Origin: an uncultured delta proteobacterium
GTDB taxonomy: Bacteria; Myxococcota_A; UBA9160; SMWR01
Length of the DNA: 64,000 nucleotides
Assembly (NCBI GenBank): GCA_963832165.1
Contig: CAWHTE010000011.1
Location: forward strand, 480,001 to 544,000
Direction: 5' to 3'
Part shown: piece after piece, positions 2,218 to 59,741 of the stretch
How positions within the stretch are numbered: the first letter of the stretch is position 1
Layout: every line of letters starts with the position of its first letter
Position numbers and translations under genes: made by a program
The notes under the pieces: generated by a model
Told to the model about the DNA's origin: nothing
What the model saw: the letters and a program-made list of their open reading frames with translations, nothing else
Databases searched by the model: none

Positions 2218-4304
2218 CAGCGACCTCCGCGCGCCGACGCGACTGCGGCGGGCGCCGCAGCGCTCCGCTGCGCCGCGGGGCGGAAGTGGATCCGCACGAT
2301 CTCGTTTCCCGACGCCACCACGCTGCCCGGCGGCGGTTCCTGGCGCACGGCGAGTCCGTCGCCGTGCAGTTCGGCGCGCAGTCCGTTCTTCGCGGTGACC
2401 TGGCTCACCTCGCTCTTCGAGAGCCCGGAGAAGTCGGGCAGCAGCACGCGATCGCGGAATGCGGAGACCGCCACCGTCGGAGGCGCGGGCTTGGGCTCGG
2501 TGCGCGGTGCGCGCACGTCGGCGCTCGGCGCGCGCGCGGGCAGGGCGGGTCCCGCGCTCGACACGGGCGGCAGCTCGGGCGTGGGCGACTTCGCGCGCGC
2601 GATCTGCGTGTCGCTGCGGCGCAGGAAGATCCCGCGGTGAGCGAGCTGGCCCGGTGCGACCTGCGCGAACAGCGGCGCAGCGGACGCGCCGCCGGTGTGG
2701 AGCGGGTACTTCGGTTCGTCGAGCTCGGACACGATCACGATGCGCGGGTCGTCGGCAGGAGCCATGCCGATGAACCAGGCGCGGAAGCGAGTCTGCGAGT
2801 AGGTGCCGCTCGCCGCATCCCACTTCTGCGCGGTGCCGGTCTTGCCCGCGACGCGCACGCCCGGCAGCGCAGCCGCGCGCGCGGTGCCCTCGTTCGTGAC
2901 GACCGTCTCGAGCATGCTGCGCAGCGCCTTCGCGGTCTCCTCGGAGATCACGCGGTGCACCACTTCGCTGCGCGTGGGCTGCCACGCTCCGTTCGGCGCG
3001 CGGCGCGCCGCGATGAGACGCGGCCGCACGAGCAGTCCGCCGTTGGCGATCGCGGACGCCGCGCTCGCAAGCTGCACCGGCGTCACGCTGATCCCCTGTC
3101 CGAACGAGATCGTGGCGTGGTCCACGGGCTTCCACTCGCGCCAGCCGCGCAGGAGGCCCGACGATTCGTCGGGGAACAGGCTGCGCGTCGAGATCCCGAA
3201 GCCGAACGCGCGCAGCATTTCGAAGTGCGCGCGCGGCCCGAGCGCATAGCCGATCTTCACCGCGCCGATGTTGCTCGACAGGCGCAGCACTCCGGCCGGG
3301 TCGAGCGGGCCGAAATCGCGCTTGTCGGTGATCGTCTTGCCCGGAACGCGCATCCGGCCGCCTTCGGTGTCGATGACGTCGCTGCGCGAGATCGCGCCGC
3401 GGTCGAGCGCACCCGCGACCAGGAACGCCTTCATCGAGGAGCCGGGTTCCATCGCGTCGAGGAACGCGCTCGATCGCGTCGCCGCATAGGGAGTGCGGCG
3501 GAAGCGGTTCGGGTCGAAACCCGGAAGCTCCGCGGCGGAGAGCAGCTCGCCCGTGTGGGGGTCCATCGCGATCACGAGGCCGCCGCGCGCGCCCGTGCGT
3601 TCGACGGCGGCCGCGAGCGCGCGCTCGGCGTCGGCCTGGAGCGTAGCGTCCAGCGTGAGCGCGACGTCGCCGCCCGCGGTCCCCCAGGTGGTCTTGGAGT
3701 CCTGGAGCAGGAAGCGGCCCGACCCGTCGCGCTCGACGCGCAGCCGGCGCGTGGTACCGCGCAGCCACGCGTTCTCCTGCTGCTCGATGCCGCGCGCGCC
3801 GTTGCCGTCGATGTTGGCGAAGCCGACCACGCGCGCGGCGAGCTCGCGATACGGGTAGATCCGGCGCGGCTCGGTGACGAGACCCACTCCCGCGAGCTTC
3901 GCGGCGGCGATCTTCTCGCTCTGCTCGGGTGTGATCCAGCGGCGCACGAACGAGAAGCCCTTGCGGCGGCGGAACGTGTTCGTGAGCTCGCGTCGATCCG
4001 CGCCCAGGATCGCACCGAGCGTGCGCGCCGCGGTTGCCGGATCGCGCACCTCGCGGCCCACCGCGTACACCGACGGCGCCTCGACCGTGAGCGCGAGACT
4101 CGTGCCGTTGCGATCGACGATGCTGCCGCGGTCGGGCAAGAGCGTCATCATGCGTTCGGTCTGGTCGTCGCCGCGCTGCGCGCCGCGTTCGTCGAACACC
4201 GATAGATGTGCCGCGCGCGCTGCGAGCACTGCGAACATGCCGAGGAGCGCTGCGCGCGCGATGGCCACGCGCCGGGCGCTCGTCCGCACGTCCGCAGATC
4301 TCAT
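2217..4304 (-). CDS. ftsI: Peptidoglycan transpeptidase PBP3 with C-terminal PASTA-like domain
   Basis: N-terminal TM; RGSIVDRNG; EPGSSMK (SxxK); SSN; KTGTAQ; dcw position. Confidence 0.95.
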   Translation of the reverse strand: MRSADVRTSARRVAIARAALLGMFAVLAARAAHLSVFDERGAQRGDDQTERMMTLLPDRGSIVDRNGTSLALTVEAPSVYAVGREVRDPATAARTLGAILGADRRELTNTFRRRKGFSFVRRWITPEQSEKIAAAKLAGVGLVTEPRRIYPYRELAARVVGFANIDGNGARGIEQQENAWLRGTTRRLRVERDGSGRFLLQDSKTTWGTAGGDVALTLDATLQADAERALAAAVERTGARGGLVIAMDPHTGELLSAAELPGFDPNRFRRTPYAATRSSAFLDAMEPGSSMKAFLVAGALDRGAISRSDVIDTEGGRMRVPGKTITDKRDFGPLDPAGVLRLSSNIGAVKIGYALGPRAHFEMLRAFGFGISTRSLFPDESSGLLRGWREWKPVDHATISFGQGISVTPVQLASAASAIANGGLLVRPRLIAARRAPNGAWQPTRSEVVHRVISEETAKALRSMLETVVTNEGTARAAALPGVRVAGKTGTAQKWDAASGTYSQTRFRAWFIGMAPADDPRIVIVSELDEPKYPLHTGGASAAPLFAQVAPGQLAHRGIFLRRSDTQIARAKSPTPELPPVSSAGPALPARAPSADVRAPRTEPKPAPPTVAVSAFRDRVLLPDFSGLSKSEVSQVTAKNGLRAELHGDGLAVRQEPPPGSVVASGNEIVRIHFRPAAQRSAAAPAAVASARGGR

Positions 4305-55650: not shown

Positions 55651-56520
55651 ATGGGTTTGCTCGACGGCAAGGTGGCGATCGTGACGGGAGCGGGCGGGGG
55701 CATCGGACGCGAGCACGCTCTCGCGCTCGCGCGCGAGGGCGCCGCGGTGCTCGTGAACGACCTCGGTGGCGCGCGCGACGGCACGGGCAGCGGACACCGC
55801 ATGGCGGATCAGGTGGTCGATGAGATCCGCGCGGCGGGCGGCGAGGCCGCACCGAACTACGACGACGTCTCCACGGTCGAAGGCGGCAAGGGCATCCTGA
55901 AAGGTGCGCTCGACGCATTCGAGCGCGTCGACATCCTCGTGAACAACGCGGGGATCCTGCGCGACAAGTCGTTCGCGAATACCACGGAGGAGATGTGGGA
56001 CATCGTGGTGAAGGTGCACCTCAAGGGCACCTACTGCGTGTCACAACCCGTGTGGAACCACATGAAGGACGCCGCGCAGGGCGGCGTGATCATCAACACT
56101 TCGTCGACGTCCGCGCTCAACGGCAACTTCGGCCAGTGCAACTACGGCGCCGCAAAGGGCGGCATCGCGGGCTTCTCGCGCTGCCTCGCGATCGAGGGAA
56201 AGAAGTATGGGATCCGCGTGCACATCCTCGCGCCGGTCGCGTACACGCGGCTCACCTCGGACCTGGGCGGCTTCGGCGACGACGCCGAGAAGATGAAGGC
56301 GCAGCTCGACCCCGCCCTCGTGTCGCCGCTGATCGTCTACCTCGCGAGCGACGAGGCGAAGGAGCTCACCGGGCGCACGTTCTACATCGGCGGCGGGCGG
56401 ATCGCCGAGATGAAGGTCGTGACGTACACGGGCGTGACCAAGAAGGAGAAGGGCGGGCTCTGGACGCCCAAGGAGATCGGCGAGGCGATGAAGCCGGGTG
56501 CGATCCTGATGCCGGAGTAG
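55651..56520 (+). CDS. SDR oxidoreductase (3-hydroxyacyl-CoA dehydrogenase/MFE-2-like)
   Basis: TGAGGGIG, VNDLG, NNAGILRD, NYGAAK. Confidence 0.93.
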   Translation: MGLLDGKVAIVTGAGGGIGREHALALAREGAAVLVNDLGGARDGTGSGHRMADQVVDEIRAAGGEAAPNYDDVSTVEGGKGILKGALDAFERVDILVNNAGILRDKSFANTTEEMWDIVVKVHLKGTYCVSQPVWNHMKDAAQGGVIINTSSTSALNGNFGQCNYGAAKGGIAGFSRCLAIEGKKYGIRVHILAPVAYTRLTSDLGGFGDDAEKMKAQLDPALVSPLIVYLASDEAKELTGRTFYIGGGRIAEMKVVTYTGVTKKEKGGLWTPKEIGEAMKPGAILMPE

Positions 56521-56550
56521 GGCGGATTAGCCCGAAGGGCGTAATCCGCC
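56517..56550 (+). repeat. GTAG-family REP-like palindrome
   Basis: GTAG + GGCGGATTA-GCCC-GAA-GGGC-G-TAATCCGCC overlapping the SDR stop codon. Confidence 0.75.
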
Positions 56551-56764
56551 ATTCCGCGGTGTCCGTTGCCTGGGTCCGGGCGTTGATTCGCCGCGTCGGC
56601 GTTGTGGCTCTGTCGGCGTGCACGACGGTGCACCGGAGCACAACGGTTGCCGGCTCGGAGACGCATATGCTCCAGGATCACCAACGCCTCCGGCGGCGAA
56701 TTCAAGCGCCCGGCCTAGCGCATCGAGAGGTTCACGTTTTCAGGGCGTACGAGTTCGAATTCGA

Positions 56765-56960
56765 GTGGCGGGGTGGTTGGCTTGCTGCGGCGAAGTAAAG
56801 CGGAGCCGGCCACGGGCCGTCGCACGGCTCGTGGCCACTTGGGTTGGACCGGCAACCTGAAAGCCTGAAGCAATCGCTGGCTTCGGACCCTTCGGGCGAG
56901 AGAGAACGTCACCCCCAGGCCGGCGAGCCATGAGCGGCAGCAAGCCAACCACCCCCCCAC
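56765..56960. other. Inverted-repeat-bounded structured element (candidate ncRNA or MITE)
   Basis: 24-bp terminal inverted repeats with 1 mismatch enclosing several hairpins. Confidence 0.55.
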
Positions 56961-57026
56961 GTCGCGAACACGAGCGAGCGTGACAATGCGTCGACAGCGT
57001 AGGGACGCGGTGCCATTCTAGGCGCC

Positions 57027-59741
57027 ATGCCGGAGCAAGCGACCGGTCCGGCTCCCGCGCCCCATCGCAACGAACCGGATCCGACGCCGCGCGTGCCCGC
57101 GGCGGATCGTTCGGGAGAGCACGGGCTGCCCGCCGATCCGCTGTCGGCGATGACGCCGCGCTTCAACCTCTTCTTCCGCTGGTTCGCGCGGCGCTACTTC
57201 CGCGACTTCGACCTCGAGGACGAGACCGTCGAGCGGCTGCGCGACCTCGAGAAGCGCGGCGCGGTCGTCTACGTGATGCGCTATGCGAGTCGGCTCGACT
57301 ACTTCCTGTTCAACACGCTGTTCCGGCGCGAGGGACTGCGCCTGTCCGGCTTCGCGAACGGGATCCGGTACTGGTACTACCGGCCGCTGCGCGACGCGGT
57401 GCGCACGGTGTCGCGCCAGCCGCGCGGTGGGCCGCAGGACGTCGAGCTCGTGCGCGCGCGCGACTACACCCGCGAGCTGACCCGGGAAGGCGGCTCGCTG
57501 TTCCTGTTCCTGCGCACCGCGAGCCTGGGCACGCAGCTCAAGAGCCGCCAGGGGCGCATCGACCAGGGGCGTCAGGAGCGCGACCTCCTGGCCGAGGTGG
57601 TCGCCTCGGCGCAGGACTCGGGCCGGCCCGTGTTCATCGTTCCGCTCGCGCTGTTCTGGCGCAAGGGTCCGCGCGCGCGGCGGCGCTTCCTGAACCTCTC
57701 CTACGGAGCGCTCACGCGCCCGAACGACGTCTCGAAGGTGCTCTCGTTCCTCACCACCTACCGCGGGCTTCACGTGAAGGTGGGCGATCCGATCGACGTG
57801 CCCGGGTTCGCAGCTACGCGCCCGAACGCGAGCACGTCCGAGGTCGCGCGCGTGATCCGGCGCTCGATCCTGACCTTCCTGTACCGCTCGGAGCGCGTGG
57901 TGGAGGGGCCCGTGCTCCAGCCCTACCACCGCGTGCAGGAGATCGTGGTGCGCTCGCCCGCGGTGGCGGCCGCGGTGGCCGCGTACGCGGCCGAGCAGAA
58001 GGTCTCCGACGAGATCGCGCGCGTGCAGGCGGAGAAGATGTTCCGCGAGATCGCGGCGAACATGAGCTCCACCTTCCTCGCGATCCTCGACATCGTCGTG
58101 GGCGCGGTGATCCGGCGCCTGTTCGTGTCGGTCGAAGACTCGGGTATCGAGCGCGTGTCCGAGTACGCGCGGCGCGATCCCGTGGTACTCGTGCCCACGC
58201 ACCGGTCGTATTTCGACTTCCTGATCGTGTCGTCGATCTTCTACCGGCGGCACCTCCTGCCGCCGCACATCGCGGCGCGCGAGAACATGGCGTTCGGTCC
58301 GTTCGGCTTCCTGTGGCGCCGCGCGGGGGCGTTCTTCCTGCGCCGGTCGTTCGCGGACCCGCTCTACAAGGAGGTGTTCCGCACCTACGTCTCCTATCTG
58401 ATCAAGGAGGGCTTCACGCAGGAGTTCTTCATCGAGGGCGGTCGATCGCGCACGGGCAAGACGCTGCCGCCGCGCCTCGGCGTGCTGTCGTGGGACGTCG
58501 AGGCCTTCCTCGCGAGCGGCCGGCGTGATCTTCTCTTCGTGCCGGTCGCGCTCACCTACGAGCGGCTCGTCGAGGAGGGCTCGATGGTGGGCGAGCTCGA
58601 GGGCGCCGCGAAGGAAGACGAGAGCATGCTGCGCCTGATCGGCGCGTGGCGCTTCCTCCAGCGCCGGTTCGGCTCGGTCTTCGTGAACTTCGGCGCACCG
58701 CTCTCGCTCGCCGACGCGATCGGTGATCGGCGCGAGGAGCTCTCGGGCGAGAGCGAGGAGGCCGTCGCCGCGCGCCGCTCGTTCGTCGAGCTGCTCGGAC
58801 TCCAGATCGTCGAGCAGATGAACCTCTCCGTGGTGCCGCACGCCACGGCCGTGGCCGCGTGTGCCCTGCTAGGCGAGCGCCGCCGCGGCCTGTTCCGCGC
58901 CGATCTCGCGCTGCGGATGCAGCAGCTCATCGACCTGATGCGGATGACGAGCGTGAAGCTCACGCCTGCGCTGTTGCGCGACGAGGGCGACTTCTCCGAA
59001 TCGATTGCGTCGCTCCTGCGCGTGGACCTGATCCGCGCGGCGCCGGATCCGCGCGGCGAAATCCTGTTCTTCGAGCCGAACCGGCGGCGCGCGCTCGACA
59101 TCTATCGCAACAGCATCCTGCACTTCCTCGCGGCGCCGAGCTTCCTCGCGCTCGAGCTGCTGCGCGGTGGCGCGCGCGAGGATGTGATCAGGCGGCTGTA
59201 CGACTGGCTCGACGTGTTCCACGGCGAGGTGTTCGTCGCACGCGGGCCCGCGCTCGCGGCGCACGTCGATGCCTTCCTCGGCCACTTCGAGGCGCTCGGC
59301 TGGATCACGCGCAGCGCGTCCGAGCTGCGCGCCACCGAAGCGGGCGAGCCGCACCTGGCCTTTCTCGCCGAGCTGACGCGCGCGCTGCTCGAGAGCTACC
59401 GCGTCGCGACGTCGGTGGTGGCCCAGCAGACGGAGCCGATCGAGCGGCGGGCGCTCGAGAAGAAGATTGCCGAGCAGTTCGAGCGCGCGGCGCTGCTGGG
59501 CGAGATCGGCCTGCCCGAGGCGAACAACGCCGTGACGTTCGGCAATGCAGTCGATCTGCTGCTGCGGCTCGGCGTGCTCGCCGCGCAGCCGCACACGGGT
59601 GCGGGCGCAAGCTTCGCGCAGCGAGCCGAAGGCGAGCGAAGACCAGCGGGTGGCCGCGATCCGCTGTTCGGCCAGGGTCCGGCCTGGTCGGAGCTCGCGC
59701 GGCTGCGAGAGCGTCTGGCGACCGCGCTGCGCCCCCGGTAG
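57027..59741 (+). CDS. plsB: Glycerol-3-phosphate 1-O-acyltransferase, PlsB-like
   Basis: PTHRSYFD (HxxxxD), GAFFLRRSF, FFIEGGRSRTGK, VPVALTYE, KEDES; 904 aa. Confidence 0.88.
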   Translation: MPEQATGPAPAPHRNEPDPTPRVPAADRSGEHGLPADPLSAMTPRFNLFFRWFARRYFRDFDLEDETVERLRDLEKRGAVVYVMRYASRLDYFLFNTLFRREGLRLSGFANGIRYWYYRPLRDAVRTVSRQPRGGPQDVELVRARDYTRELTREGGSLFLFLRTASLGTQLKSRQGRIDQGRQERDLLAEVVASAQDSGRPVFIVPLALFWRKGPRARRRFLNLSYGALTRPNDVSKVLSFLTTYRGLHVKVGDPIDVPGFAATRPNASTSEVARVIRRSILTFLYRSERVVEGPVLQPYHRVQEIVVRSPAVAAAVAAYAAEQKVSDEIARVQAEKMFREIAANMSSTFLAILDIVVGAVIRRLFVSVEDSGIERVSEYARRDPVVLVPTHRSYFDFLIVSSIFYRRHLLPPHIAARENMAFGPFGFLWRRAGAFFLRRSFADPLYKEVFRTYVSYLIKEGFTQEFFIEGGRSRTGKTLPPRLGVLSWDVEAFLASGRRDLLFVPVALTYERLVEEGSMVGELEGAAKEDESMLRLIGAWRFLQRRFGSVFVNFGAPLSLADAIGDRREELSGESEEAVAARRSFVELLGLQIVEQMNLSVVPHATAVAACALLGERRRGLFRADLALRMQQLIDLMRMTSVKLTPALLRDEGDFSESIASLLRVDLIRAAPDPRGEILFFEPNRRRALDIYRNSILHFLAAPSFLALELLRGGAREDVIRRLYDWLDVFHGEVFVARGPALAAHVDAFLGHFEALGWITRSASELRATEAGEPHLAFLAELTRALLESYRVATSVVAQQTEPIERRALEKKIAEQFERAALLGEIGLPEANNAVTFGNAVDLLLRLGVLAAQPHTGAGASFAQRAEGERRPAGGRDPLFGQGPAWSELARLRERLATALRPR
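59607..59645 (+). repeat. Intragenic 39-bp repeat, copy 2 (in the plsB 3' end)
   Basis: gcaagcttcgcgcagcgagccgaaggcgagcgaagacca; 38/39 match to the reverse complement of 623-661. Confidence 0.85.

Follow-up and report, generated by a model that had tools for sequence, protein, structure and literature searches.

Classical bacterial MITEs are short, non-coding and multi-copy sequences with long inverted repeats. REPINs and BIMEs are thought to move as single-strand hairpin DNA and to be reshuffled (accessible text of PMC3116915 and PMC3733652), and the spacer of REPINs is constrained in length and in hairpin capacity and shows compensatory changes (PMC3116915). Bridge RNAs carry two guide loops within the end of an IS, as the available part of PMC11208160 describes them, and the orphan ssr9 module occupies a fixed point inside a REP (available part of PMC12288879). 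The way in which REP-like repeats spread is not settled; in most of the cases that have been worked out, a RAYT adjoins them.

The hairpin described here is one module of a multi-copy, non-coding intergenic repeat, which was likely inserted in its host lineage and likely spreads at the DNA level as a single-strand hairpin through an enzyme encoded elsewhere. We give this reading a probability of about two in three (0.66). On our analysis the unit is likely non-autonomous, REPIN/BIME-like selfish DNA.

The window is a stretch of 64,000 nts in which a 506-nt gap leads from a short-chain dehydrogenase gene to a glycerol-3-phosphate acyltransferase gene. A preliminary description had placed in this gap an element of about 200 nts, closed by 24-bp inverted repeats with one mismatch. 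The inverted repeat is real and was correctly read; on computation its arms (56765-56791 and 56934-56960) span 27 nts with 93% complementarity. However, the element was drawn too narrowly: the hairpin, hereafter hairpin D (196 bases), is one module of a repeat unit of about 410 nts (56551-56965), which reaches some 210 nts further left, to a REP. This is the REP that had been noted about 210 bp away; it ends at 56551, 214 nts from the left arm, and its GTAG head overlaps the stop codon of the dehydrogenase gene. The parts of the locus are as follows.

55651..56520, plus strand: upstream host gene, a short-chain dehydrogenase (PF00106, E 6.8e-42; orthologues in five genus-mates)
56517..56551, plus strand: GTAG-headed REP hairpin, head of the unit, also common standing alone
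56552..56570, plus strand: linker common to the type-A copies, where it is raggedly eroded (from the alignment)
56571..56717, minus strand: module U type A, a second long hairpin (DNA fold -44.8/-46.5 kcal/mol)
56718..56764, no strand: spacer between hairpins U and D, the most variable part among the genome copies
56765..56791, plus strand: left arm of module D; its sequence differs between family members, with pairing kept
56792..56811, plus strand: conserved left core of module D, invariant columns in alignment A2
56812..56917, plus strand: variable loop of module D, 106 nts, containing the internal stems and IS1111-like words of the preliminary description
56918..56933, plus strand: conserved right core, with inner stem and GAGCCAT motif, invariant in A2
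56934..56960, plus strand: right arm of module D, pairing with the left arm
57027..59741, plus strand: downstream host gene, a glycerol-3-phosphate acyltransferase (PF19277, E 1.2e-59, and PF01553; orthologues found)

The region 56753-56969 folds at -122.7 kcal/mol on the plus strand (z -7.04), with a z of -6.26 on the minus strand, and none of 200 shuffles was as stable on either strand. A 19-nt arm probe allowing up to 3 mismatches found two sites only in the 64,000 nts, which are the two arms (chance 0.01). The left core is formed by a purine-rich internal loop, a 2-bp stem, a 3-nt loop strand and the left side of a 7-bp inner stem, and the right core has no variable column among 16 in the 11 full genome copies; in the spacer region, taken from 56707, 23 of 58 alignment columns vary. 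Module U has a mismatched inner stem, a loop of about 75 nts and purine-rich inner loops on the minus strand. The loop of hairpin D measures 106 nts here vs about 64-67 nts in most relatives, an insert of about 40 nts relative to the covariance model R1. It contains the short internal stems reported earlier, and the reported CTTCGG words are present as well. The reported 13-bp internal hairpin exists in the window and overlaps the conserved inner stem of the family, but it is intact in only 3 of the 11 genome copies, the other 8 keeping 11-12 pairs. Three ORFs of 80, 81 and 107 aa overlap the unit without a Pfam match, and the genome copies differ by 1- and 2-nt indels, which agrees with the earlier opinion that no credible ORF is present.

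The host genome (5.5 Mb in 11 contigs, 89% complete) was searched by BLAST and with a profile. It contains 11 full-length copies of the unit, which lie between genes at unrelated sites, as well as one diverged copy and six partial loci, and R1 finds 12 matches. Among the partial loci, three have the left hairpin U by itself (in one case as an inverted pair), two have no more than the left half of hairpin D, and one copy lacks everything between the arms. Copies of hairpin D account for 10 of the 16 genome loci with perfect arms of at least 17 bp within 220 nts. The ends of the copies are ragged, their flanks are unrelated and no consistent direct repeat was found; one copy carries a local duplication at the 5′ end. 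According to rough ORF calls, the stop codon of an opposite-strand gene lies within 70 nts of the end of at least 8 of the 12 copies. No replication-strand bias was seen among the copies (9 vs 8).

Full copies are 93.7-98.7% identical. The unit is a mosaic of a GTAG REP, hairpin U (type A in 8 and type B in 3 full copies), a spacer and hairpin D, and the four-gamete test failed for 53 of 90 informative site pairs. These pairs show all four combinations, so the copies exchange pieces, although part of this mosaic signal could stem from the population consensus of a metagenome assembly. The exact pattern of hairpin U type B matches five times in the host genome and once in each of 4 others among 225 genomes (control 1). 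Hairpin U therefore looks genome-specific at the stringency tested. By eye, U type B has on the minus strand a loop-stem-loop design similar to that of D, to which R1 gives no score. A 13-nt stretch of U type A (56693-56705, minus strand) also lies downstream of IS91-type genes in genome G157, near the right end, possibly by chance. Separately, contig 7 has close to its start (C7:3136-3473) a perfect inverted repeat, the arms of which measure 118 bp and the loop 102 nts; it may represent the end of an element or a fold-back produced by assembly.

Contigs of four soil metagenome assemblies cover 56553-56802 and 56521-56898 with 5 and 11 differing letters, and since they carry the unit, it exists outside the source assembly. 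These contigs contained no excision product, circle or empty-site joint, and none joins across the unit.

The two flanking genes are adjacent in five genus-mates. In four of these (G001, G002, G003 and G005) the orthologous gap measures about 8-100 nts and has no R1 match, vs 506 nts here. In the fifth, G004, the gap is occupied by another member of the hairpin D family, which is inverted relative to that of the host (R1 score 56.9 bits, E 4.8e-8). An insertion at the dehydrogenase gene specific to the host lineage is therefore likely, and the elements of the host and of G004 are read as two independent arrivals at one stop codon, although the inversion of one old insertion may also explain the difference. 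The preliminary description had suggested looking for copies and empty sites in genomes, and both were found: 11 full copies and a gap that is empty in four genus-mates.

Hairpin D belongs to a family that extends beyond the host. Weak matches in relatives first exposed its conserved core, and R1 was built from 33 sequences. The family was detected in 70 of 225 genomes of the class (529 matches), all in one order, the reversed-pattern control giving 0 in every positive genome. Across the phylum, R1 was positive in 12 of 151 genomes, again all of the same order, with 20 candidates scored per genome. Copy number among relatives ranges from 0 to 70, the maximum being reached in G016, and at least 125 loci of the family were found in metagenomes. 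A strict core pattern found 7 loci in a wider genome collection, all in one genome. Four pattern scans of viral contigs gave no match, the unit had none in 5,426 E. coli genomes, and plasmids and phages matched no better than chance-level pieces.

The anatomy of the family is constant: the outer arms enclose an asymmetric, purine-rich internal loop, which is followed by a 2-bp stem, a 3 x 2 loop, the inner stem and finally the loop. Counted from the core, the outer arms have a median length of 30 bp. Pairing is kept in 95.4% of arm cells vs 39-50% in slid-partner controls, a count that related sequences inflate. A covariation analysis, one of the checks proposed earlier, showed two-sided changes at all 21 modelled arm pairs, and 168 distinct left arms occur among 187 members. 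The core-to-core span is 91-102 nts in 198 of 238 members, 139-140 nts in the full copies of the host genome and down to 29 nts in collapsed forms. When the neighbours of 157 members were clustered, 151 clusters resulted, and the recurrent ones were housekeeping families or orthologous loci. Target-site duplications of at least 4 nts numbered 12 among 225 members vs about 11 in shuffles.

The loops show several features of their own. They are richer in C than in G on the purine strand of the core in 137 of 182 members. In G016, one subfamily (L088-L099) has a second, smaller palindromic repeat nested in the loop, and other family copies of this genome stand in tandem runs with a period of 140-153 nts. 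The idea that the loop is a captured guide was abandoned, since the loops of a genome fall into subfamilies that are inherited; only loops of the host genome were searched against their own genome. In genus g62 (L308-L318), a conserved unpaired tail beginning with CTTG follows the right arm at the same offset in 27 members. CTTG is known as a target word of IS91.

Members of the family often stand in doublets. In five element-rich genomes, 74 of 124 copies form close pairs (<1 kb), and in all 37 pairs the relative orientation is identical, with the right arms outward. The spacers of the doublets measure 87-699 nts, and one encloses a DUF5076 gene. In G047 (L246:1480-3137), two doublets bracket a glutathione S-transferase gene, the four matches being all that were found among the 20 candidates scored, which suggests a cargo cassette. 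The unit of the host genome has the same geometry, with hairpin U as the partner of D.

These observations suggest a mechanism. The unit would enter behind the stop codon of the dehydrogenase gene, and an enzyme encoded elsewhere would cut and re-join it in the form of a single-strand hairpin. This protein would read the conserved core, a putative binding site, on the extruded or single-stranded hairpin, the purine-rich loops of which could give sheared G-A pairs on only one of the strands. The arms would only have to pair. The doublet would be the travelling unit, moving as single-stranded DNA, and landing behind stop codons would do little harm. The unit of the host would be a doublet of hybrid type, with hairpin U in the place of the second partner, and the modules would be shuffled when copies recombine or undergo gene conversion. 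Read-through transcripts would carry the hairpin in their 3′ ends, where it may stabilise or stop the mRNA, as is thought for REPs. A bolder form of this reading, which we put forward only tentatively, is that these oriented hairpins with long loops make up a kind of mobile DNA not described before. The enzyme recognising their internal core and loop length would belong to none of the RAYT, IS91, IS110, Ssn and reverse-transcriptase families and might be a host enzyme, and their inverted doublets would be able to enclose cargo and to swap partner hairpins, as the hybrid unit of the host illustrates.

The mobilising enzyme was searched for in the host and in related genomes. The preliminary description had seen no adjacent transposase or reverse transcriptase. 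The repeat is indeed non-coding and non-autonomous; none of these genes stands beside the unit, and none was found among 83 neighbour proteins of the family scanned by Pfam. Each scan covered a chosen subset: the first 44 neighbours and 2 window genes, of which 16 have no Pfam family, the second 39 of 82 ORFs, of which 4 have none, so that 20 of the 85 proteins lack a family assignment. An unannotated mover may be among these or outside the scanned subset. The host genome encodes 12 Y1 (PF01797) genes, 5 IS110 genes and a single GIY-YIG match, in a 625-aa frame of the size of UvrC; it gave no match to IS91-type transposases (PF04986) or reverse transcriptases (PF00078), at 89% completeness. 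In the host and related genomes, all of which are incomplete assemblies, the core was absent within about 1.5 kb of 22 Y1, 17 IS91-type, 7 GIY-YIG and 5 IS110 loci. PF04986 was present in 5 of 5 element-rich genomes, a set that had no element-free comparison. Sixteen resident transposases gave no tblastn match in 221 loci.

The Y1 genes of the host fall into two kinds. Eleven are dispersed (HUH) genes of about 230-250 aa, which barely reach the PF01797 cut-off and have no classical REPs; several are flanked by a short purine/pyrimidine hairpin motif that they share among themselves. They lie at C1:102477, C2:485363, C3:3415, C3:44062, C3:96625, C5:330641, C6:7737, C11:63085, C11:137213, C11:229913 and C11:918011 (e.g., L031), and the family occurs in 57 of 225 class genomes, often with 10 or more copies. 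It does not track the element (21 of 70 positive vs 29 of 123 negative genomes of the order, p 0.39, with kin not independent), and 3 of the 18 element-richest genomes have it. The remaining gene, at C4:535459 (L027), looks like a canonical RAYT gene. A second type of GTAG REP is clustered in its flanks, and the two types together amount to 169 GTAG-REP heads genome-wide.

Another explanation is that hairpin D is a structured RNA family kept by the host, which would act in the 3′ ends of transcripts, on their stability or by ending transcription where genes converge, or would be a small RNA whose core binds a protein, and which would spread mainly by gene conversion. This agrees with the seat of the members behind stop codons: among 121 members with a called neighbour on that side, the right arm faces the stop codon of the opposite-strand gene in 97, a rule to which the copy in the window is an exception. 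The same placement is taken as a sign of RNA function in the REP literature, as far as the accessible text of PMC3733652 goes. Covariation in the arms is strong, and G-T mispairs outnumber A-C ones, 87 vs 30 in the larger set (9 vs 10 in the smaller). Sites are also retained between orthologues of different species (13 pairs), the loop being less conserved than both arms in 11 of the 13, although the pairs are not independent. However, the arms are strictly Watson-Crick at 3002 of 3258 positions (92%) and differ from site to site, relatives may have 70 copies or none, and the gap of the window has no element in 4 of 5 genus-mates and one of opposite orientation in the fifth. In addition, no sigma-70-type promoter was found at the unit, and terminator-like sites are no commoner than in shuffles. 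No Rfam family applies either: a search of Rfam 15 with the window region gave nothing near a gathering score (4 chance-level matches, none inside the element), and 10 family loci gave no match, which also speaks against a known housekeeping RNA such as 6S, an option named in the preliminary description. The variable arms and the empty gap fit mobile DNA better than an orphan non-coding RNA, and we regard the RNA explanation as unlikely by itself; a role in RNA can nevertheless be compatible with DNA mobility.

It is still harder to see the unit as a mosaic of the BIME type that the resident RAYT mobilises by way of the GTAG REP head, with hairpins U and D as passengers. In its favour, the genome has the REP-flanked Y1 gene at C4:535459 with a related GTAG REP, and the REP head GTAGGGC starts 4 of the 8 type-A copies, on the upstream stop codon, whole in the window and eroded in three. 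The GTAG REP of the type at 56517-56551 gives 75 strand-matches genome-wide, most loci being counted on both strands. Against it, a REP head is missing from the diverged copy and from all 3 type-B copies, PF01797 was matched in 2 of 10 element-rich genomes (all incomplete assemblies), the other 8 giving nothing, and GTAG lies near the foot of the arms of hairpin D in 28 of 238 members, little above the 8.6% of random DNA. Transport by way of the GTAG REP could underlie the recent burst in the host genome but leaves the family unexplained, and as an account of the whole we consider it improbable.

The family shares with the GTAG/CGTC REPs and BIMEs the seat just behind stop codons, often between convergent genes, the mosaic build and the occurrence of dimers, including hybrids of two families (available text of PMC3733652), and a GTAG REP heads some of the unit copies. 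In contrast, neither tag stands above background at the foot of hairpin D itself (CGTC in 58 of 238 members vs 32% in random DNA); in the unit only the separate REP at 56517-56551 is tagged. Stems here are about 27-30 bp and loops about 65-106 nts, whereas REPs have stems of 6-13 bp and mostly short loops, as the same source gives them (PMC3733652).

The preliminary description had proposed an orphan ncRNA, a MITE or a guide-RNA relic of an IS110/IS1111 element. An orphan bridge or seek RNA, or a MITE of such origin that entered at REPs in the manner of ssr9 from ISPpu9 (a precedent in the accessible part of PMC12288879), is very improbable: four copies do have a REP at their 5′ end and the genome has five IS110-family genes, but the unit scores no better than random DNA against the ends of these genes, no copy has a REP half on its 3′ side, the ragged ends show no fixed junction, and the 5,426 E. 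coli genomes, the plasmids and the phages gave nothing beyond chance-level pieces. The IS1111-like motif sits in the variable loop, and its first 12 nts (up to 2 mismatches) recur in 2 of 187 members outside the genome, both times across the loop end and the inner stem; the quoted words are thus not a feature of the family. Like the IS110 bridge RNA and ssr9/MITEPpu9, the unit is a structured non-coding module of the 150-200-nt kind, away from a transposase and near REPs (available parts of PMC11208160 and PMC12288879); unlike them, it is not homologous to IS110 ends, does not enter REPs at a fixed point and has no conserved target, and the two-loop guide architecture is absent from the fold of the family. 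In the same genome, two identical IS110-group elements (L023, C1:235102, and L024, C11:96839) have a long structured 5′ end and may serve as a pair from which a bridge RNA and its target could be defined. A retro-copied RNA, such as a retron msr-msd-like hairpin closed by terminal repeats, is equally remote: it would suit the size of about 200 nts, the long inverted repeats and the ragged 5′ ends, but the genome and the scanned neighbours gave no reverse transcriptase, as reported above, and doublets of fixed orientation with variable spacers are not expected from retro-copying.

Nor is the unit a classical MITE. It is likewise short, non-coding and multi-copy, with long inverted repeats, but across the family these differ between copies and the conserved part lies between them, they bound one module and not the repeated unit, which in the host genome is larger than the repeat-bounded part, and target-site duplications do not exceed the shuffled control. 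Moreover, no autonomous IS sharing the arms was found among the 83 neighbours or by the comparison of the 16 transposases with 221 loci. The NTS/SRM repeats and their Ssn GIY-YIG enzymes offer another parallel, in that oriented hairpin repeats are plausibly read as single-stranded DNA by a small enzyme (accessible text of PMC11893778). However, the SRM pattern given there matches none of 238 members, nor the unit in the window, the core is absent at all 7 GIY-YIG loci, and the only GIY-YIG match of the host genome is UvrC-sized.

The closest likeness is to REPINs. As described in the accessible text of PMC3116915, these are also non-autonomous and extragenic, form inverted doublets, show compensatory changes and have a patchy copy number, with a spacer limited in length and pairing but not in sequence. 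The mode of movement proposed here, DNA-level spread as a single-strand hairpin, is that thought to apply to REPINs and BIMEs. The difference lies in the partner, which in REPINs is a REP of 20-40 nts with an invariant outer 16-mer (as far as that source goes) and here is a hairpin of about 150-195 nts with an asymmetric internal core, sequence-free outer arms and an invariant part that is internal. Furthermore, no RAYT gene was found to be flanked by the core of the family (0 of 22 Y1 loci). Hence the family resembles REPINs and BIMEs in behaviour and departs from them in unit structure, tag and cognate RAYT.

No published description of the family was found in the openly searchable literature (subscription journals and bioRxiv supplements being outside its scope), and no paper in the open literature search contained two of four core words of 10-12 nts. 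A 'PAIR' class of repeats does not appear in the text and 8 supplements of PMC2864571 or in PMC5737381, in so far as these sources were accessible.

What is added here to the known REP-like repeats is a recent burst of a hybrid unit, orthologous sites that are empty or independently filled, a strict orientation of doublets and negative tests for the usual movers. The family persists across one order, bursts in single genomes and re-enters the same gap independently, yet the usual movers are all missing from its vicinity. The inside-out design, with free arms, a fixed core and a set loop length, makes a clear substrate for a pull-down or cleavage assay, which could bring to light a new enzyme acting on single-strand DNA or demonstrate that those of the host are enough. 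If the family is only another variant of REPs, it would still serve as an aid to annotation for an uncultured soil lineage.
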